A DNA stretch of 34,438 nt from a virus (lineage: Duplodnaviria; Caudoviricetes): positions 1-34,438 of the IMG/VR virus record IMGVR_UViG_3300016666_000287; one strand, 5' to 3'. The notes beneath the pieces were generated by a model. The model was given only the letters and a program-made list of their open reading frames with translations. It was not told where the DNA came from and ran no database searches. This document shows positions 179 to 33,406 of this stretch, in pieces. Position numbers and translations under genes: made by a program. Each line of letters starts with the position of its first letter. Positions within the stretch are counted from its first letter, which is position 1.

Positions 179-1378
179 ATGCTCACGGAAAAGCAAATCC
201 GGGCGTTCAAGCCCCGGGAGAATGACTACATCGTTTCTGATGGAAGGAGTACCAGAGGGGAAGGCGTATTGATCCTCAAAGTCAGGCCAAACGGTACGAA
301 GGAGTATTATTTTCAACGTCATGTGGCTGGGAAGAAGAAGTTAACCAAGGTAGGAGTGTGGCCCACGCTGAGCCTTGTTGAGGCTCGTGAGAGCTGTAGA
401 GAGCAGCGTACCAAGGTAATAGCAGGTGGTACGTTTAATGACCTTCTTGATGCTTATGTGTCCAAGCTTACTGGTGAGAATGCTGCATCGACAGACGATG
501 TACAGTGGTCATTCAAGCGGTACGTGACCGAACCATTTCCAAATTTTGCAATACTTCCAGCGTGCGCAATCGGCCCTGGAGAAATTCGTGACATCATCAC
601 TCGGATGATTGAGCGTGGAATAACGACCTACTGCAATCGCGTAAGGTCCCGTTTGCATGCTGCATTTCAAATGGGGCTCGAACAAGAGTTCAACCCTCGA
701 AATTATCATCAGGGCGGTCTGAAGTTCGGCCTGCAAAACAACCCAGTGGCCAGCATACCGGTTCAGGATGATTGGGAGCGCCCAGGTGATCGAACACTTA
801 CGGTTGAGGAGTTGGCAACGCTTTGGCAGCTTCTACCTGAGAAGCTGTCGTTGACTACTGCTGTATTGCTTCAGTTCTTGATTGCTTCTGGTGGCCAGCG
901 TCCTGAACAGCTCCTGGCTGTGGAGCGGCAGCAGTATTACAAGGACCATCTGCTCATTCGAAACAAGAAGGGGCGGGACGGAGAAAGAGCCGCGCATGCG
1001 GTACCGTACAATAAGCTCATGCGCCAAAGCCTACACACGATGTCCGAGATCAGCAGTACAAGCGTCTATCCCTTTGAGGGGAAGAACGAAGGAAAAAGCC
1101 TGCATGCCAATTCGCTATCGCGTGCAGTCACAAAGCTCTATGGGCGCCACGCTGAGAAATTTGAAGAGCCATTCACGCTTCGAGATCTTCGTCGAACCTG
1201 CAAAACATTGATGGGGGTAGCTGGCATTTCAAAAGAGTTGCGTGACCGGATTCAGGGTCATGCATTTAGTGATGTTTCGTCCAAACACTACGACCGCTAT
1301 GACTATTTTAAAGAAAAGAAAAGCGGTCTTGCACGATGGTCGACGTGGCTAGAAAAAAATGCTATCAAAAGGCCATGA
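179..1378 (+). CDS. int: Tyrosine recombinase / P4-like phage integrase with N-terminal arm-binding domain
   Basis: N-terminus MLTEKQIRAFKP..DG....L.L.V.P.G.K; catalytic motifs GGQRPEQL, RDLRRT, QGH, KHYDRY; adjacent to att. ATG 179 is preferred over GTG 122 of the ORF track. Confidence 0.95.
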   Translation: MLTEKQIRAFKPRENDYIVSDGRSTRGEGVLILKVRPNGTKEYYFQRHVAGKKKLTKVGVWPTLSLVEARESCREQRTKVIAGGTFNDLLDAYVSKLTGENAASTDDVQWSFKRYVTEPFPNFAILPACAIGPGEIRDIITRMIERGITTYCNRVRSRLHAAFQMGLEQEFNPRNYHQGGLKFGLQNNPVASIPVQDDWERPGDRTLTVEELATLWQLLPEKLSLTTAVLLQFLIASGGQRPEQLLAVERQQYYKDHLLIRNKKGRDGERAAHAVPYNKLMRQSLHTMSEISSTSVYPFEGKNEGKSLHANSLSRAVTKLYGRHAEKFEEPFTLRDLRRTCKTLMGVAGISKELRDRIQGHAFSDVSSKHYDRYDYFKEKKSGLARWSTWLEKNAIKRP

Positions 1379-1412
1379 ATGTCAGTTTGACCTTCACATT
1401 GAGGAATGGACT

Positions 1413-1898
1413 ATGCCAGCAATGACCGATCCAATGGATGGTTTGAAAAGCTTTCAGAAGCAGGTAAAAATTGTCGGAATAAAGTTATCGAAAGGCGAGG
1501 TGCATCCGGATGTTTCCGTACACCTCGATTACCCTAATGGAGTAGCACGGTTGAGCTACGCATTAATTGATAATGGTCGTGTACGAGCCTTTGTTACCTA
1601 TATCCCGGGCGAGCCATACAATGGCCTGCCATGTTTTTCTATTGGGTATGCTGTCCCTGAGAAGTTCAGAAATCAGGGGCTTGGGGCAGAGATTATTGAG
1701 AAAAGTATCGACGAGCTTAAAAACGGTTATTCCCGTAATGGGATCAGTGAATTCTATGTTGAAGCAGTTGTTGCAGAATCCAACGTACCATCACAAAAGC
1801 TAGCGGAAAAAGCCATCTCGCCAACTGTCGATCGCACGGGCCATGATAGTTACTCTGGTGAGCCGGCATTAACGTATATGCGGTACGTTGAGGCTTAA
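1413..1898 (+). CDS. GNAT-family N-acetyltransferase (cargo gene)
   Basis: Acetyl-CoA motif A IGYAVPEKFRNQGLG and motif B V.ESNVPSQKLAEK; GAGGA upstream of ATG 1413; visibly AT-richer than the structural genes. Confidence 0.8.
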   Translation: MPAMTDPMDGLKSFQKQVKIVGIKLSKGEVHPDVSVHLDYPNGVARLSYALIDNGRVRAFVTYIPGEPYNGLPCFSIGYAVPEKFRNQGLGAEIIEKSIDELKNGYSRNGISEFYVEAVVAESNVPSQKLAEKAISPTVDRTGHDSYSGEPALTYMRYVEA

Positions 1899-5772: not shown

Positions 5773-6006
5773 TTACTTCACTGCTTTAAGGCTAAGGGAA
5801 AGGGCCGCCATCAGGCGTTTCTGTGCTGCCATCACTGGGGATCTTTCTAGGATAAATTCGTGTCGTATGGCCGCTGGGACGTAGCGATATTCGTCTGCGT
5901 ACCAGTGTTCATTCAGGCTCATCAGGTACTGCGCACGCACGGCAGCCCGTAGCGCTTTTGCCTGGTCAGGCGGCATTTGGGTGGTGACAATCACGGCGTT
6001 TCCCAT
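5773..6006 (-). CDS. Hypothetical phage early protein (77 aa)
   Basis: GAGG RBS before ATG 6006 (MGNAVIV...); stop codon 2 bp from the primase start. Confidence 0.7.
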   Translation of the reverse strand: MGNAVIVTTQMPPDQAKALRAAVRAQYLMSLNEHWYADEYRYVPAAIRHEFILERSPVMAAQKRLMAALSLSLKAVK

Positions 6007-6085
6007 AGTGAAACCTCGAATTTGGACGCAGCTCACCCAAACCCACTGGGTGTGGGACAGGCGATTTATTGGATTGGTGGTGCTA

Positions 6086-6568
6086 CTAAGAAGCGACGGA
6101 TGGCCGACGCTTTGCATGCAGTTGGAGAACTGCCATAACTTCCGCATGCCTGGCAGCCATGTGCAGGCTTTCAGCTTTATGGATGGCGTCTGCTTCGTCT
6201 TGATCGATCACACCGTCCTCAAGGGCTTGGGCGATGATTTGGTCCACTGTCCCGCGCTTAGCGGCTGTGTCCACACACATGGTGTACAGCTCAACATTGT
6301 CGAGTGAGTCCGTATCCGCCACGCGGACGAACATACCGCCGTACATGGCTGCGACGTACTCAGGGTAATGGGTCGTACCTGTGACCAACTCCAGTTGATA
6401 AACCTGCTCAGCAGTTAATGGGCTGCTTTTGTTGTTTTCGTAGGCATGGTTTTCAAACTTCTTTTGGTTCATGCCGAGCAGGTCTGACGCGAATTTACAG
6501 CCACCAGGTAAAGAGCGAATCAGCTCACTGGCCACATCCCTACGAGTTTTTAGAACGATGGTTTTCAT
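6086..6568 (-). CDS. CII-like / YmfL-family phage regulatory protein
   Basis: N-terminal HTH-like LIRSLPGGCKFASDLLGM, GGMFV, and C-terminal ALEDGVIDQDE typical of this family; second gene of the early operon. Start is uncertain (6568 or 6580). Confidence 0.7.
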   Translation of the reverse strand: MKTIVLKTRRDVASELIRSLPGGCKFASDLLGMNQKKFENHAYENNKSSPLTAEQVYQLELVTGTTHYPEYVAAMYGGMFVRVADTDSLDNVELYTMCVDTAAKRGTVDQIIAQALEDGVIDQDEADAIHKAESLHMAARHAEVMAVLQLHAKRRPSVAS

Positions 6569-6597
6569 CTTCTGTTTCATCCTTTTGTTTATCGGCT

Positions 6598-6858
6598 TTA
6601 CTGTCCGGCACACGCAAGGCGTTCACCGTCTGGTTGGAGAATTCCCGGAAGTACTTCTTGGCCGATAAAAACTGACAAATCTTGCAGAATCCGAAACGTC
6701 AGCCTTCCGCTTGGAAGGTTTGTGTGTCCTGCCCAGCGCTTAATTACCTGGGTGACAGTTCGAGGTTCGTAGCCGTGACTAATAGCGAACTGGCGGAAAT
6801 TGCTCCCCCGTTCTATTAACCGTGCCTGAATCAGGCGCTTTTCCATAACGTCGCTCAT
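6598..6858 (-). CDS. Ner/Cro-like HTH DNA-binding protein (lytic-side repressor)
   Basis: IQARLIERGSNFRQFAISHGYEPRTVTQVI Ner-like pattern; divergent from cI; first early gene. Confidence 0.75.
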   Translation of the reverse strand: MSDVMEKRLIQARLIERGSNFRQFAISHGYEPRTVTQVIKRWAGHTNLPSGRLTFRILQDLSVFIGQEVLPGILQPDGERLACAGQ

Positions 6859-7692: not shown

Positions 7693-8724
7693 TTAGCCGC
7701 TAGAAACCTCAAGTTTTGGTTCGTCTCGCCATGCTATCCGCCGATCCTCTCGCAACAAATCGTTGACCTGGTTAAACAACTGACAGATCGGCCGAATTTC
7801 ATTGCTGGTGTAGACGCGATCGATCTTTTCGATATCGCCGAAACCAGCGCTGTTTTCCGGGATGATGCCGGCCAGTGCGGGGTTCATACGCCAGGCAGCA
7901 ATCACGTCGTTTCGCGTGATGTTCTTCACTTTTTCCAGTTCGTCTTTGGCCTGGAAGTCGCCCACCGGGATGATCTGAATGGCGTTTTCCTTGCCGTTTG
8001 GAATATTGACGAACATCGAGCGGAAATTACCCACACCCTTGCTTGCGCTGATTTGTTCGCGCAAGTTGTTTTCGTCTTCTTCCGTCAGGTCTGGATCGTT
8101 GGTGTAGAAAATGTAGCCCGCGTGGGCGCCGTTGCTGTAGTAGCGCCGGCGGAAGAGGGTGGCCGCTTCATTGAGCAGTAACGCCTGCATGCCGCCCAAG
8201 TAATCCGGAATGCCATAGATGTTCTGCTCCACGTCGTAATCCATGACGTGCTCGATATCGTCCTGTTCAAAGTCCATGAACTTGTTGTCAGGCAGAAGCA
8301 TTCTGAAACCGCCGCCTACCTTGACCCGCATATTGATCGCAGAAAGGTGCTGCAGCTCCAGGACTTGGCCGAAAGCGTTTCTATCCCGGTAGAAGTACGC
8401 TTCGCCAAACACCATGTAGTCCAAACCGGCGCGACCCATGGTTTGAGAGTTGCAGCCGTCAGAAGGTATGAACTCACGCAGTAGCAAGTTGCGTTTGAAC
8501 TTCGGAATGGCGCCGTGGTGTGCGTTGGCACGCAACAGTTTGGCCAGGCCCGTGCGTGACACTGGCGGCTTGTATATCTCGCCGTCGTCGCTGGGAAACA
8601 CCCCCACGTACTCGCCGATATTGCCACTGAGTACCTGTTCTGGTTCCCCGAAGGTGAACGCGCGCATTGGCTGTTGTTGCCGTGGTTGCTGATTGACTTG
8701 GTGCTTGTTGCGTCGGTTGGGCAT
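7693..8724 (-). CDS. gpQ: Portal protein (P2 gpQ family)
   Basis: YGIPDYLGG...LLNEAATLFRRRYYSNGAHAG, SKGVGNFRSMF, GFGDIEK signatures; position next to the terminase. Confidence 0.95.
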   Translation of the reverse strand: MPNRRNKHQVNQQPRQQQPMRAFTFGEPEQVLSGNIGEYVGVFPSDDGEIYKPPVSRTGLAKLLRANAHHGAIPKFKRNLLLREFIPSDGCNSQTMGRAGLDYMVFGEAYFYRDRNAFGQVLELQHLSAINMRVKVGGGFRMLLPDNKFMDFEQDDIEHVMDYDVEQNIYGIPDYLGGMQALLLNEAATLFRRRYYSNGAHAGYIFYTNDPDLTEEDENNLREQISASKGVGNFRSMFVNIPNGKENAIQIIPVGDFQAKDELEKVKNITRNDVIAAWRMNPALAGIIPENSAGFGDIEKIDRVYTSNEIRPICQLFNQVNDLLREDRRIAWRDEPKLEVSSG

Positions 8725-10522
8725 GGGTTCCGCTCGTGATGTAGCGGCTCCGGCGCCGCTTGTTCGTGTTCAAGGGTTCGTTGGCCAAGGCGTGCATGAT
8801 TGCCCAGGCGATATCGGCGTGGCCGGTAGCTTCGGTGCGCGAAGCGCTGTAGGTGATCTGGCCGCTGCCGGTGGTGCCGCGCTTGATCGTCAGGAACGCC
8901 TGGGCCACGTCGGTCCAGCCGGCATCCCATTCGATACGGCTGCCTTGGATCGTGTCTTGGGCTTTGAGGACAAGCGTGTTTTTTGTTTCCAAGCTGTAGT
9001 GAATCGACGTTGTTCGTGGGTAGAAGTCGCGCACCAGGTCGAAAACCCCATAACCGATCCCGGTGGTATCGATGCCGATGTGCTGCACGTTGAAGCGCTC
9101 CGTGAGCTTCTTGACCTGCTCGGCCTGGTACTTGAACGATTGCCCCCGCCAGCTGTGTTTCTCCAAGATGCGGAACTTCGCTCCAGCTTCGAGTGGAGGA
9201 GCAATAACCACGCAAGTGGCGTCATCGCGAGTACGGCTGGGGTCGTAGCCGATCCAGACGGGGCTGTTGCCGTAGGGGCGGTCGTCGTCGGGCTTGTAGT
9301 CCTCCCACAACGTCAGGTCGGAGTAGCAGCGCTCCAGGTCTTTGAGGCCGAATGCGCTCTGCGAGCTGTCGATGAACTTGCAATAGAACAACTGCTGGAA
9401 CTTGTCCTCGTCGTATTCCAGCTGCAGCTGCTCGAGGTCGAACAGATCGCAGCCGCCGTCGATTGCATCCTGGATGGTGATGGTCTTGCGCCATTGGCCA
9501 TCTGGACACAGCGCCCCCTGGGTGTAAGCCGCTTCGGTAGGCCAGGTTCCGCCGGCCTTTTTACCGCGCTTGCTGTTGCGAAACTCTTCGCCTGACCAGA
9601 ACGGATAGGCCTGGTGTGACACTGCGCTGGGGGTCGAGAAGTAGGTTTTGCGCCACTTCTTGTGCGTTCCCATGGCGCTTGCCACGGTGCTGAGTTTTTC
9701 GAAATCGCGAATCCAGAAATACTCGTCCACATAGACGTGCCCGTGGTAGCCCTGGGCGGTGCTGCTGTTGGTGCTGAGGAAACGCAGCTCGGCGCCGTTG
9801 CTGAGGGTTATGGGGTTGCCGGTCAGCTCGATGCCAAACCACTGCTGAGCAAACTGGATGATGTAGCTGCGGAAAATTTCCGATTGCGATCGGCTAGCCG
9901 ACAGAAACACCTGGTTGTCGCCGGTCAACACCGCGTCCATGAAGGCTTCGCCGGCGAAGTAGTAAGTCAGACCGACCTGGCGACTTTTGAGAATGTTGCG
10001 GATCCGGCAGGTCAGCGGGTTTTGCTTAGCCGCGAACAGTTCCTTTTGGTAGCCGTACATCTTGGAGATGAACTTATCCAGGAAGTCCACTTCGGTCAGG
10101 CCGCTGATATCGTTCTTGGCCTTCTTTTCCCGTTTTTTGTCGCCACTGTCCTTACGACCGGAACGCTCCCCACGTGAGCCTTGGCGGCGCTCCTGGGGTT
10201 CTGCCGGATCGTCAACGTTTGGGGCCAGGGATGGCTTGGCGGCTTGTTTAAGAAGCCGCTCGCGAATGGTGGTCAACCGGTCCAGCTCGTTCAGGTCGTC
10301 CTTGGAGAGGCTCGTGGCCTTGTCCAGTAGCAGGGTGATCCGTCGGCCGATCGCCGTCAGCGGTTCTTCATCCGACAGCATGTCCTCCCAACCGCCCTGG
10401 CGAATCCAGTAGTAGACGATCCGGATGTTGGGCAGGTTGAGTTGTGCCTGAATTTCCTTCGCCTTACAGCGGCGTAGAAACAGGCGTTTAGCAGCTTCTT
10501 TTACTTCGGTTGAATAGAGCAT
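8474..10522 (-). CDS. gpP: Terminase large (ATPase/nuclease) subunit (P2 gpP family)
   Basis: ILKSRQVGLTYYFA, YVDEYFW, FSTPS, IGYDPSRTRD, GHADIAWA; the ORF extends 251 bp into the portal gene. Confidence 0.95.
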   Translation of the reverse strand: MLYSTEVKEAAKRLFLRRCKAKEIQAQLNLPNIRIVYYWIRQGGWEDMLSDEEPLTAIGRRITLLLDKATSLSKDDLNELDRLTTIRERLLKQAAKPSLAPNVDDPAEPQERRQGSRGERSGRKDSGDKKREKKAKNDISGLTEVDFLDKFISKMYGYQKELFAAKQNPLTCRIRNILKSRQVGLTYYFAGEAFMDAVLTGDNQVFLSASRSQSEIFRSYIIQFAQQWFGIELTGNPITLSNGAELRFLSTNSSTAQGYHGHVYVDEYFWIRDFEKLSTVASAMGTHKKWRKTYFSTPSAVSHQAYPFWSGEEFRNSKRGKKAGGTWPTEAAYTQGALCPDGQWRKTITIQDAIDGGCDLFDLEQLQLEYDEDKFQQLFYCKFIDSSQSAFGLKDLERCYSDLTLWEDYKPDDDRPYGNSPVWIGYDPSRTRDDATCVVIAPPLEAGAKFRILEKHSWRGQSFKYQAEQVKKLTERFNVQHIGIDTTGIGYGVFDLVRDFYPRTTSIHYSLETKNTLVLKAQDTIQGSRIEWDAGWTDVAQAFLTIKRGTTGSGQITYSASRTEATGHADIAWAIMHALANEPLNTNKRRRSRYITSGTHAQPTQQAPSQSATTATTANARVHLRGTRTGTQWQYRRVRGGVSQRRRRDIQAASVTHGPGQTVACQRTPRRHSEVQTQLATA

Positions 10523-29655: not shown

Positions 29656-30348
29656 ATGAAACTGCACAAAGTGCTGACCATCGGCGGCACCGTATACCCG
29701 CTGGTCAAAGACGATGTCCGGCTGGAGCTGCGCACCCCGGGGCGAGCCTCGTTCACGGTGCAAGCCAAAGCCCCGTTAAAAGGATTGGTGACGCTGGACA
29801 TTGGTTACAACGACAAGCCGCTACAGCGGTTTTTCATTGGCTACGTCGAGCGCAGTACCAGCGTGAACGCCGTCGAGCAGGTGCTGTTCTGCCGCGAGCT
29901 GGCTGCAATCCTGAGCCAGCCGCTGCCGTTGAACCTGCGGCACGTGGATCTTCGCGCCGTGCTGACCGCTATCAGCAACAAGACCGGGCTCACGTTCCGC
30001 GTGCCTGATCAGCCCTATGCCAAGGTCAAGGCCCCGTTCTTTTACAACCTGGCCACCGGCATTCAAGCCATGGACAGTCTGGCCCGGGTGTTCAGCATTC
30101 CCGACCCGATCTGGCAGCAGCAGGGCGACGGCGAAGTCTTTGTGGGCAGTTGGGCCGACAGCTTTTTTGGTGCCCGGGAGCCGCTGCAGCTGCCAATCGA
30201 ATTGTTCGACGGCTACCAGGGCAACGAAAGCGCCATGGTCGCCGCCATGCCAGGCATACGCCCTGGTGCAACCTTTAATCAGGCGCAACGCATCGTTTCG
30301 GTGTCGCTGGCCGCGAATCAAATGGGTTTGAAGTGGAAGAAGCAATAA
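29656..30348 (+). CDS. Baseplate hub-like protein (gpD-like)
   Basis: PGRASFTV...LDIGY...WQQQGDGEVFVGSW...PGIRPG; precedes the spike gene. Confidence 0.65.
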   Translation: MKLHKVLTIGGTVYPLVKDDVRLELRTPGRASFTVQAKAPLKGLVTLDIGYNDKPLQRFFIGYVERSTSVNAVEQVLFCRELAAILSQPLPLNLRHVDLRAVLTAISNKTGLTFRVPDQPYAKVKAPFFYNLATGIQAMDSLARVFSIPDPIWQQQGDGEVFVGSWADSFFGAREPLQLPIELFDGYQGNESAMVAAMPGIRPGATFNQAQRIVSVSLAANQMGLKWKKQ

Positions 30349-31310
30349 AACGCGCCGTAGAACGTCAATTCCCCGAGCTGAGCGGCGGCTACCACCTGCC
30401 CAGATTCGCCCTAGTGCAAGGTGTGGCCGATGCCCCGGCCCAGTCCGGCATCTGCGACAACTTCCGGCCCCGGTACGCGGTTGACCTGCAGGTACTGGCC
30501 GAAGATGGCGAACCCGACCCCAACCTGCCGATTCTGGCCGGTGTACCGCTGCCAGTGTCCGTGGGCGGTGATGAGATGGGCTTTTTCGGCTTCCCGGGGG
30601 AAGGCACCACGGTGGTGGTCAACTTCGCCTATGGCATGCCCAGCAAGCCCTTTATCCAGACCATACTGCCCCACGGCCTGAGCCTGCCCAAGGTGCCCAA
30701 AGGGGATCAAGTCTGGCAGCACAGCGAAACCGCCCAACAGCGCGTGGACGCCGACGGCAACTGGTCGCGGCAGACTGATGGCCGCATACAGGACTTCTCA
30801 GCTGATCGCGAAGTCCAAGCCCTGGACAACCAGGAGCACTATCAAAGCCACAGCCAAACCGTGGACGACCATTCAAAAGAGACGGTCGGCGGCGTAAAAA
30901 CACTCGAAGCGATGGGTGCCATGAAACTGCTGTCAGGCGGTTCGATGAGCGTGGCGGCTGTGGATGACTTGCACCAGGCCACGGGGCGCGACCTGAATTT
31001 GGTGGTTGGTGATAAGTACAACGCCACCGTGGGTGGCGATATGCAGGAGCGGATCGAGGGCCTGCGCAAGAGCGTGGCGGGGGAGGGGCAGCGGTTGGTC
31101 GCGCCGAAAAACTGGATTGGCTCTGAAAGCGTGAACCTGTTTCAGGTGGTGTGTGATTTGCTCGACCTAGTGCAGGAGATGAACACGCAACTGGCGGGGC
31201 ATACGCATTTGCCTGGGCCGACGCCGAGTCCTACAGATGCAGCTGCATTTATAGCCAAAGCAGCAATTGGCAAGCAACTTTCGGTTAAGACGAAAGCAAT
31301 AAACTTTTGA
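30333..31310 (+). CDS. Baseplate central spike protein (gpV/gp5-like)
   Basis: OB-fold-like N-terminus (P.EGT.VVV.FAYG.P..P), beta-helix-like repeats (VGGD..E.I.G) and C-terminal HTH metal-binding tip (LAGHTH). Confidence 0.7.
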   Translation: MEEAIKRAVERQFPELSGGYHLPRFALVQGVADAPAQSGICDNFRPRYAVDLQVLAEDGEPDPNLPILAGVPLPVSVGGDEMGFFGFPGEGTTVVVNFAYGMPSKPFIQTILPHGLSLPKVPKGDQVWQHSETAQQRVDADGNWSRQTDGRIQDFSADREVQALDNQEHYQSHSQTVDDHSKETVGGVKTLEAMGAMKLLSGGSMSVAAVDDLHQATGRDLNLVVGDKYNATVGGDMQERIEGLRKSVAGEGQRLVAPKNWIGSESVNLFQVVCDLLDLVQEMNTQLAGHTHLPGPTPSPTDAAAFIAKAAIGKQLSVKTKAINF

Positions 31311-31550: not shown

Positions 31551-31584
31551 AAGAACGCCGAAGCCCGCACTGGGCGGGCTTCGG
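31551..31584 (-). terminator. Intrinsic terminator-like hairpin
   Basis: CCGAAGCCCGC-N5-GCGGGCTTCGG perfect 11-bp stem (31558-31584) with CGTTCTT tail on the - strand. Confidence 0.7.
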
Positions 31585-31671
31585 GTGTATGCTTTTAGCA
31601 GGATCCCTGACGGAAAACCTGTGATAGCATCTGGCTCAATCACTCGAACCATAGATCTTTGGAACTCGACA
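31551..31671 (-). ncRNA. Predicted ~120-nt antisense sRNA (candidate antitoxin/regulator)
   Basis: - strand promoter TTGACG (31701-31706), 17-bp spacer, TAGCCT (31678-31683); no ORF seen; ends in an 11-bp hairpin plus CGTTCTT. Ends are estimated. Confidence 0.5.
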
Positions 31672-31893
31672 CTTCAAAGGCTATGGCTAACTGATCACCC
31701 CGTCAAGCCCGAATAGGTGCTTGCGGGTGAAACACTGCAAATGCTGGGTTGTTATTCATATATGTAATGCTTCCCAGATTAATTAGTTAACCAAACTGGC
31801 TAACTAATTAGCGTGTACGGTTAGATCAAGTGAGAGGTGCTGCTAACGCTCATGTCAGTGTGCAGCTTTCTCTAACCTTTGGAGTAGTAACCA

Positions 31894-31989
31894 ATGTTGA
31901 ATTACATTGCTCGCTTCCTGCCGGAGGAGTTGATCAGGTTCTTGCAAGTAACCTATTGGCTGATCCGTCTGTACAAGCTTTTTTTCTAA
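31894..31989 (+). CDS. Unannotated 31-aa amphipathic peptide MLNYIARFLPEELIRFLQVTYWLIRLYKLFF (type I toxin-like)
   Basis: GGAG SD at 31881-31884, ATG 31894, TAA 31987-31989, strong terminator 14 bp later; below the ORF-track size cut-off. Confidence 0.65.
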   Translation: MLNYIARFLPEELIRFLQVTYWLIRLYKLFF

Positions 31990-32003
31990 GCTTGTCGTCA
32001 AAT

Positions 32004-32030
32004 AAAACAGGGGCTTCGGCCCCTGTTTTT
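32004..32030 (+). terminator. Strong intrinsic terminator (potentially bidirectional)
   Basis: AAAACAGGGGC-TTCG-GCCCCTGTTTTT; C(UUCG)G tetraloop on the + strand. Confidence 0.9.
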
Positions 32031-32228
32031 GTTTCGCACGCTGAAGATATCTCCACCGTGCCTCTCTTGATTTTCTGACGCGTGGGTAAGCCTCTTGATC
32101 CGATAGGTCGGTATTCGCCCGTCGCTACGATGCTGCACCTGTTGCAGGCGTGCTCACTCCACGCAAAAGTGACACGGTAAGAAGAAAGTCAGGCAAAAAC
32201 GTTTCGCAGCATAAAAATATCGGCTCAC

Positions 32229-32263: not shown

Positions 32264-32788
32264 CTACTTCTTTTTACCGGTGGGTTTTGTTACAGCCCCT
32301 TCGCTCGGTGTGCGTTTCCGTCGTCCAGTGATGAATGCTGCGATGATGCCGCCGAAGCCAACGGTTCCGATAGCGCTAGCAGCTATCTCATGGCCTTGAA
32401 GAGCCAAGTACACCACGGATGCAATTACTGCTAACGAAATCATCAGAGCGAACAGCTGGCCCATCAATATTTCGACTATATACCAAGTCGATAGTTTTTC
32501 ATCGATGGCTATCGATCGGCTTTCTATACCCTGTCGATGCGCTGTCTGGCTGGTCGTCCATTGGACAATCTCCTGGGCCAAACCAGGGACTACAGAGTCA
32601 TATTCTCTGAGTAGTGATGGAGGAGGCAGGGGGCCTTGAAAGGCCGTGGTGACCATTCCGGTCTGCTTCCTCTCGCGTTCAATCGTGCCGGTGCGAGGCT
32701 CTACGCGAGCATCAGGCTTGTTGGGTGTCACGTTCTTTGGCTTCTGCGACACGCTGTTTGCCTTGTTCTGCTGCTTTATAGAAGTCAT
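32264..32788 (-). CDS. DUF2335-like predicted membrane protein
   Basis: FQGPLPPPSLLREYD.VVPG.A..I......Q.AHR signature, two C-terminal TM segments and basic tail. Start is uncertain (ATG 32788 or GTG 32752). Confidence 0.8.
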   Translation of the reverse strand: MTSIKQQNKANSVSQKPKNVTPNKPDARVEPRTGTIERERKQTGMVTTAFQGPLPPPSLLREYDSVVPGLAQEIVQWTTSQTAHRQGIESRSIAIDEKLSTWYIVEILMGQLFALMISLAVIASVVYLALQGHEIAASAIGTVGFGGIIAAFITGRRKRTPSEGAVTKPTGKKK

Positions 32789-32939
32789 GACCGATCGCCT
32801 GCACATCTTCTTGCAGCGCTTCAAAGTCAGTTCGTGCTAACTCAGATCCGTGACCACGATAGTGGCTGTAGCCTTGTGCCGGGCAAAGCACCAAAACGGA
32901 CCCGATGCCTGAGAGCAAATTCCTGAGCATACGATTCAC
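32712..32939 (-). CDS. Small hypothetical partner of the DUF2335-like gene (75 aa)
   Basis: LLSGIGSVL.L.P ... D.EALQED.QAIG.D pattern; overlaps the next gene; sits just after a promoter. Start is GTG 32939 or the nearby ATG. Confidence 0.7.
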   Translation of the reverse strand: MNRMLRNLLSGIGSVLVLCPAQGYSHYRGHGSELARTDFEALQEDVQAIGHDFYKAAEQGKQRVAEAKERDTQQA

Positions 32940-33118: not shown

Positions 33119-33134
33119 CTGTAAATATATACAG
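33119..33134. promoter_or_regulatory. LexA (SOS) box
   Basis: CTGTAAATATATACAG = CTG-N10-CAG with AT-rich spacer, preceded by TA. Confidence 0.85.
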
Positions 33135-33244
33135 CTTTTTCCTTCTTGGCTCCTTTACCTACGTTGCCGCTCGAGATCTAAACAAGATGCAGCATAGCTG
33201 CAGCTTGGGAAGTCAGGCATGAAATTAAAAAACTGCGGGAAAAA

Positions 33245-33406
33245 GCACTTATCCCCCTCCCGCCGACGGGCCTTGTGTCCTTTTTTTGTGCAAATCCGGA
33301 TGTAGTGCAAACGAACCTGTAGCCCAGGCGGGCCGTGGGGCTCTGTAGGGGATCGGCCATTGCACAGAATGCAAAGTTTTGAAGGGAAGTGCAGCGCGGT
33401 TGCACA
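33245..33406. other. Putative cos (packaging) region
   Basis: The reverse complement of 33245-33264 (GGCGGGAGGGGGATAAGTGC) resembles the P2 cohesive end GGCGAGGCGGGGAAAGCAC as recalled; followed by a T-tract and repeated GTGCAAA/TTGCACA motifs. Confidence 0.55.

Follow-up and report, generated by a model that had tools for sequence, protein, structure and literature searches.

Several described type I toxin-antitoxin pairs resemble, in one respect or another, the locus analyzed here. In dinQ/agrB and dqlB/agrB, a small helical peptide is encoded behind a leader of ~200 nt with mutually exclusive pairings, and in dinQ/agrB the antisense RNA binds far from the ribosome-binding site (RBS) and closes the Shine-Dalgarno (SD) sequence (available sections of PMC5066626), while dqlB-agrB is presented as a plasmid addiction module (accessible text of PMC12365149 and PMC12317039). 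In timP/timR, a 5′ structure is needed for translation, the small RNA (sRNA) disrupts it, and long-range pairing governs the SD (available text of PMC13000454). The hok/sok pair and the ldr/rdl pair each have a cis-encoded antisense RNA whose open 5′ end targets leader sequence upstream of the ORF and are likewise tied to the maintenance of mobile DNA, and the tisB/istR-1 and shoB/ohsC pairs are alike in the size of their peptides, a single polar stripe along the helix, and the central position of a Gln.

Here, we examined a window of 34,438 nt (the whole stretch of viral DNA under study), in which a first-pass annotation had proposed a type I toxin-antitoxin-like module; the motifs, the ORF with its translation, and the hairpins that it listed were all recovered, position for position. 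The window is an entire virus record and represents a P2-family prophage carrying integrase, P2 capsid, terminase, portal, Ogr, and tail genes, with a tRNA-Gly gene close to its right end, and from its named relatives we infer that its host is Pseudomonas. The module (46.5% G+C versus 56.9% window-wide) sits between the last tail-region gene (30333-31310) and a convergent DUF2335 gene. The gene order of P2 places cos close to the portal gene, and the slot, which had been described as a cos-proximal defence hotspot, instead follows the last tail gene near the tRNA-Gly end, making it att-proximal, and gave no PADLOC match. Its elements are as follows:

31551-31672, minus strand: predicted antisense RNA of ~120 nt, with its 5′ end placed from promoter spacing to within ± 2 nt
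31558-31584, minus strand: antisense terminator-like hairpin (-22.4 kcal/mol)
31622-31630, plus strand: extended -10 element TG-A-TAGCAT of the peptide mRNA, which would start near 31637
31639-31646, plus strand: 5′ strand of the long-range helix P1 (RNAalifold consensus, 46 modules)
31649-31686, plus strand: hairpin SL1 (-13.0 kcal/mol), with the left arm and loop as predicted antisense target
31672-31686, plus strand: SL1 right arm, a predicted latent anti-SD that overlaps the antisense -10 DNA
31678-31706, minus strand: antisense sigma70-type promoter TTGACG-17 nt-TAGCCT (-35 at 31701-31706, -10 at 31678-31683)
31695-31810, plus strand: variable middle leader with three hairpins that fold in the window, unconserved in sequence and length and absent from short-leader copies
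31827-31833, plus strand: 3′ strand of P1 (same consensus fold)
31876-31884, plus strand: SD-proximal segment ending in the GGAG SD (31881-31884)
31894-31989, plus strand: peptide gene, 31 aa (family 28-36 aa, core PEELIRxLQxxYWxxRL, predicted single helix)
32004-32030, plus strand: mRNA terminator hairpin (-17.4 kcal/mol), with a matching hairpin after the stop codon in relatives

In our folding models, the module would work most like dinQ/agrB and timP/timR, with an sRNA bound at a distance from the RBS and a resulting shift between alternative helices, while differing from both. The agrB RNA does not overlap its mRNA, whereas the antisense RNA here overlaps the mRNA 5′ end; loss of the dinQ 5′ end turns translation on, whereas the present module is predicted to have its RBS closed when the 5′ end is lost or blocked; and dinQ is under LexA control, which we rejected for the module as no LexA box lies at it. 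E. coli DinQ has an ELIRFL stretch in common with the family peptide and, as one of five toxins tried, scored 5.3 bits on the family profile, a score matched by 1 of 300 shuffles. In the ESM Atlas, the cluster nearest to the window peptide was DinQ (0.81, a lead only), followed by TisB (0.78), and another member gave no usable match. The NCBIfam DinQ/DqlB models NF041472 and NF041473, which do match E. coli DinQ, matched none of 53 members at E ≤ 1, and a distant link between the family and DinQ is conceivable. TimP has no similarity to the peptide, its model NF040796 was unmatched by the family, the timP 5′ pseudoknot is required for translation (the module folds here covered nested pairing), and the timR gene lies 400 nt upstream without overlap (compare the available part of PMC11228461). 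We therefore file the module in neither the DinQ nor the TimP family, because no member matches their models and the layout differs.

The remaining systems are more distant in other ways. TisB and ShoB scored no better on the family profile than shuffles (98 and 129 of 300 did as well), and istR-1 and ohsC are non-overlapping sRNA genes. The antisense RNA of symE/symR also overlaps a 5′ end, but there it lies across the start codon, and the toxin is a non-membrane one. Searches for Hok, Ldr, or Fst proteins and of Rfam gave no match, and although an out-of-frame leader ORF reaches the RBS in 38 of 50 modules, a mok-like one with its own SD, as in hok/sok, occurs in just 5 of 50, both counts having no null model behind them. 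Sok and Rdl lie wholly inside the mRNA, whereas here ~85 nt of the antisense RNA extend upstream of the mRNA start, and this head-to-head partial 5′ overlap fits none of the T1TAdb antisense classes (upstream separate, 3′ overlapping, or wholly inside the mRNA) set out in the available sections of PMC8594479.

Library searches agreed with the earlier view that the family is unnamed. There was no meaningful match in Pfam, NCBIfam, PHROGs (best E 0.07), PADLOC (two members), or Rfam, and none among PDB sequences, phage records, or plasmids by blastn. The openly readable papers searched (including the accessible part of PMC9966142, and papers rather than T1TAdb entries) do not describe it; the motif is absent from the main text and eight supplementary files of Fozo 2010 (file 3 was outside this scope, and sequences are not necessarily in all files); and the available sections of the P. 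aeruginosa and P. syringae surveys (PMC9424990 and PMC8790059) name hok- and ldr-like predictions alone. Two candidates were set aside: the DC3000 entry "hok-sok" in T1TAdb refers to another protein, PSPTO_2768, and PesA of PAPI-1 was considered since one island copy (L187) follows pilM, and the same slot in pKLC102 and pDC3000B is without such an ORF.

The module is found on prophages, ICE-like islands, and conjugative plasmids of Pseudomonas. Related prophage loci were collected with the upstream gene, and a homologous module was present in 15 of the best 80 of 440 loci; a 5′ RNA profile, built partly from those loci, matched these 15 again and nothing in the remaining 65, and all 15 matches carry the peptide ORF, one of them divergent. 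An RNA-only pattern (hairpin plus promoter) gave 22 matches with the peptide downstream in every one (21 strong, 1 divergent at 8.4 bits). Peptide patterns returned 45 members among 49 matches in viral records, 50 among 57 in metagenomes, and at least 14 among the 80 matches listed for genomes, these members all titled Pseudomonas and the other 66 matches being chance. The profile occurred in 10 of 401 genomes of the genus Pseudomonas, in the centre genome alone among 301 genomes of the taxonomic family, and in the centre genome among 401 of the class, where four weak partial matches in other Gammaproteobacteria (E 0.002-0.005) were treated as chance. Among 1.84 billion representative proteins, 20 matched at E 0.001, namely 18 family members and 2 long repeats. 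Most copies sit behind the same prophage gene as the window's, and others adjoin umuC-type genes, end a type IVb pil operon accompanied by an integrase (L187), or lie beside topoisomerase and SNF2 helicase genes (L182). Six conjugative plasmids of the P. syringae group carry the module, which is unannotated in all six records; the plasmid copy keeps this anatomy but has a short leader. No neighbour gene is conserved across element types, and a tree on 87 columns was mostly unresolved and supported no direction of transfer. The modules are related, and counts across them are not independent.

The peptide ORF evolves under coding constraint, with pS 0.73 and pN 0.20 over 1225 pairs from 50 modules, and with differences of 0.35, 0.18, and 0.58 at codon positions 1, 2, and 3 in the 12 modules found by synteny; the conserved ORF for which the first-pass annotation had advised looking thus recurs in relatives. 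Residues E11, I14, R15, Q18, Y21, and W22 are invariant in 53 aligned members, partly an effect of the search pattern, and together with the near-invariant R25 they fall within 300-60 degrees of the helical wheel, i.e., on one face. AlphaFold gave one helix (residues 3-30; mean pLDDT 82, pTM 0.38), and on this model the shared face suggests oligomerisation or a specific protein partner. The earlier description of a small hydrophobic membrane peptide fared less well, since hydropathy is far below that of DinQ, TisB, and ShoB and lower than expected of a strongly hydrophobic transmembrane helix: the best 19-residue value is 1.05 for the window peptide and 0.86 for the family mean, versus 2.27-2.56 for DinQ, TisB, and ShoB and 1.7-1.8 for TimP and LdrD, and family GRAVY is 0.31 versus 1.6-1.8 for DinQ, TisB, and ShoB, TimP being likewise moderately hydrophobic (0.46). 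The hydrophobic moment exceeded that of shuffles in just 1 of 53 members, and mean net charge is +2.5. A cationic, membrane-associated peptide is likely, but a hydropathy this low for a type I toxin and a hydrophobic moment no higher than that of shuffles do not establish a simple pore.

On the RNA side, the plus-strand fold of 400 nt had z = -7.1 (0 of 100 shuffles equally good) and the antisense-strand fold z = -4.0 (0 of 200). A consensus scanner run on the window listed neither promoter and neither terminator of the module, and the U tail of the antisense terminator is interrupted, so that the case beyond chance rests on conservation in relatives and not on consensus scores. The antisense promoter motif TTGAC-TAnnCT was present in 62 of 64 non-redundant modules (L076 being missed through an anchoring error), with a 17-nt spacer in 60. 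The peptide-mRNA -10 has the TG extension in 44 of 62 modules, and the best plus-strand -10 lies 46-49 nt from the antisense -10 in 55 of 62, which fixes the mRNA/antisense overlap near 35 nt. Going by promoter and terminator motifs, the peptide mRNA would be ~395 nt long. In 50 relatives, the predicted antisense RNA has a median of 115 nt to the hairpin end, its first 20 nt are mostly unpaired (0.63 versus 0.35-0.38), and at least 5 U occur within 12 nt of terminator tail in 36; in 13 aligned modules, 7 of 10 consensus pairs of the terminator hairpin have changed on both sides. The antisense promoter, terminator, and ~35-nt overlap proposed at first pass therefore stand as DNA motifs conserved in relatives, and they predict an adjacent antisense RNA gene complementary to the mRNA. 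Separately, two 151-nt contigs of a freshwater metatranscriptome are identical to 31779-32057, which we do not count as expression evidence because the run was picked for holding this stretch, depth was 4, the data are strandless, and one contig extends 27 nt beyond the terminator; nor do we draw any conclusion from the missing cover elsewhere.

Leader structure was assessed on 46 modules, 11 of 62 (short leader, plasmid, or poorly anchored) and 5 near-duplicates having been left out. Aligned without structure, they gave an RNAalifold consensus of SL1 and P1. In P1, 266 of 354 cells are paired (75.1%), 44 with both sides changed, versus a mean of 65.5% and a maximum of 70.6% in strand-swap shuffles and at most 44% in slid alignments, margins that the relatedness of the modules can inflate. 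In SL1, 490 of 598 cells are paired. Both elements thus covary, as the earlier proposal had asked to be checked, under the same caution about related modules. An alignment-free test was weaker, with cognate 5′-end:leader pairings at -16.1 versus -13.2 and best rank in 3 of 62. Of the five hairpins said to favour the plus strand, four do, and 31780-31810 favours the minus strand (-9.8 on plus versus -14.1 on minus). As a functional array the five did not hold up, since just SL1 and the long-range helix are conserved, the middle being variable and missing in island and plasmid copies. Across modules, the antisense -10 stands about 110-280 nt from the start codon, and short-leader variants on islands and plasmids (L182, L187, L225, L230, and L272) have ~110-120 nt, offering natural minimal versions for experiments.

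These elements suggest a switch. In the free leader, the 5′ end would form P1 and SL1, keeping the SL1 right arm off the RBS. The antisense RNA would start at the edge of that arm and pair with the first ~35 nt of the mRNA, and this pairing would release the arm to pair over the SD region ~200 nt downstream; once the mRNA is complete, additional cover of its RBS, mostly by codons 3-10, would give a silent stored pool. By analogy with type I systems already described, the duplex would be cleaved by RNase III, the mRNA would outlast the antisense RNA, and loss of the element would leave a cell producing the peptide and arrested in growth (the available text of PMC8309996 and PMC13000454 covers cleavage by RNase III and differential decay in such systems).

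Folding calculations were made on 50 modules (5 of 55 with uncertain anchors excluded). With the antisense site blocked, the right arm paired with the RBS region (P>0.5) in 42 of 50 modules, compared with 5 of 50 when the site was free, and in the window it pairs with 31875-31885 at -12.9 kcal/mol. In the nascent leader, blocking raised the RBS opening energy from 6.8 to 10.4 kcal/mol (up in 44 of 50, down in 3), an equal block in the mid-leader as control added 0.1 kcal/mol, and blocking the right arm as well brought the value back to 7.8 kcal/mol; among nine further modules, close kin of the first set, it rose in 8. In the full-length mRNA, blocking raised the opening energy by only 1.1 kcal/mol (up in 29 of 50, down in 7), as the RBS is occluded even without the block, codons 3-10 being its most frequent partner (0.33 of the ensemble); in the window's full-length fold, codons 6-9 (31913-31918) pair back with the SD. 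The full-length RBS is accordingly modelled as sequestered, with a predicted SD unpaired probability of 0.20-0.24 and an opening energy of 10.6 versus 6.8 kcal/mol nascent, values that have no ordinary-mRNA baseline. As 3′ trimming cannot remove coding sequence, re-opening this RBS would need nascent ribosome loading or a standby route. It also counts against the model that its nascent leader is fairly open, in contrast to most type I toxin mRNAs (available text of PMC13000454).

A type I pair could also do without the switch, with the antisense RNA acting solely through RNase III cleavage, a standby-site block, or collision of the facing promoters, and with the right-arm:SD match as a by-product. 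Each promoter does lie head to head within the other transcript, and the right arm is constrained as promoter DNA anyway. Among 55 modules, no downstream site suits the arm better than the SD window in 22, shuffle p is ≤ 0.05 in 15, and the core duplex is weak in 29 (outside the top 5% of windows); cognate pairs gain little (-7.4 versus -6.5), and the unpaired probability of the SD itself was unmoved by blocking (0.24 versus 0.22 full length, 0.33 versus 0.33 nascent). Against this stand the move of the blocked leader's arm to the RBS region and the loss of most of the effect when the arm too is blocked, as well as the retention of the SD-proximal match in short-leader island copies with a weak SL1 (L182, L187, and L225), and we consider this switch-free reading unlikely.

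We assign a probability of about 0.6 to the module being a new type I toxin-antitoxin family that acts as an addiction module. The type I-like reading proposed at first pass gains support from the coding constraint, the conserved antisense promoter, the co-occurrence of RNA and peptide, and the presence on three kinds of mobile element, and post-segregational growth arrest, of the kind shown for dqlB-agrB on plasmids, is in keeping with these three kinds, the patchy presence, and the layered silencing. A more detailed version, which we advance tentatively and with more doubt than belief, is a Pseudomonas-specific type I family with head-to-head partial 5′ overlap, in which one 15-nt stretch would serve as antitoxin -10, right arm of the target hairpin, and releasable latent anti-SD, and in which the toxin, rather than a pore, would be a helix whose E-IR--Q--YW--R face binds a specific essential protein.

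The peptide might instead be an abortive-infection or superinfection-exclusion effector, freed when infection halts host transcription and the antisense RNA decays. The module fills a variable slot (12 of the 56 slot-spanning loci among the best 80 of 440), its neighbours elsewhere include AbiTii, NYN, and methylase genes, and hok/sok has a reported anti-phage role. However, the two members scanned with PADLOC gave no match, exclusion proteins are usually constitutive and so fit heavy silencing poorly, and the module also occurs on plasmids and ICE-like islands, for which reason we favour addiction over superinfection exclusion and judge a defence role improbable.

Weak hydrophobicity and a strongly conserved polar-aromatic face would also suit a non-toxic small regulator that binds one host protein, with its level tuned by the antisense RNA. 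The layered silencing and the near-universal antisense promoter motif (62 of 64) better fit a product that is harmful when made, and the same gene neighbour does not accompany the module from one element type to another, which leaves this reading with quite poor odds. A chance, functionless ORF between terminators, to which its very short length and the scanner's omission of both promoters might point, is excluded by the codon-position constraint and RNA-peptide co-occurrence and can be set aside.

If the addiction reading is true, the family would help explain the persistence of Pseudomonas prophages, ICE-like islands, and conjugative plasmids. The predicted switch specifies exact helices and is therefore directly testable, and the conserved polar face offers a route to a possible new antibacterial target.

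Several further observations concern the window and other copies of the module. The sole LexA-type palindrome in the window (33119-33134; 0.54 expected by chance) has no long plus-strand ORF after it and may be what is left of the promoter of a umuDC-type operon since lost, such genes lying near the module in relatives. A non-coding stretch at 33227-33300 is 78-97% conserved in most related prophages (56 of 80 loci) and bounds the variable cargo slot. On the minus strand, 32264-32939 holds a two-gene cargo of a 75-aa ORF and a 186-aa DUF2335 membrane protein, with a similar region in L056 and no PADLOC match. A GNAT acetyltransferase gene (1359-1898, plus strand) overlaps the integrase gene end and is possible accessory or toxin-like cargo. 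When the first start codon is used, the portal ORF and the end of the terminase ORF share ~250 nt (7693-8724 and 8474-10522, minus strand), and the true portal start is probably further down. Elsewhere, L076 (3705-4160, the same as L305) has a canonical RNA element before a strongly diverged peptide without the EELIR core. A Peptidase_C58 gene (effector-type family) at 5909-6748 on the plus strand of L213 lies 2 kb away from a copy of the module, next to an integrase fragment. Two module copies ~1.8 kb apart occur in L093 and L130 (same contig), L238/L239, and L293/L294, flanking a umuC-type gene in L093/L130, and the antisense RNAs of such double-copy prophages might be copy-specific.
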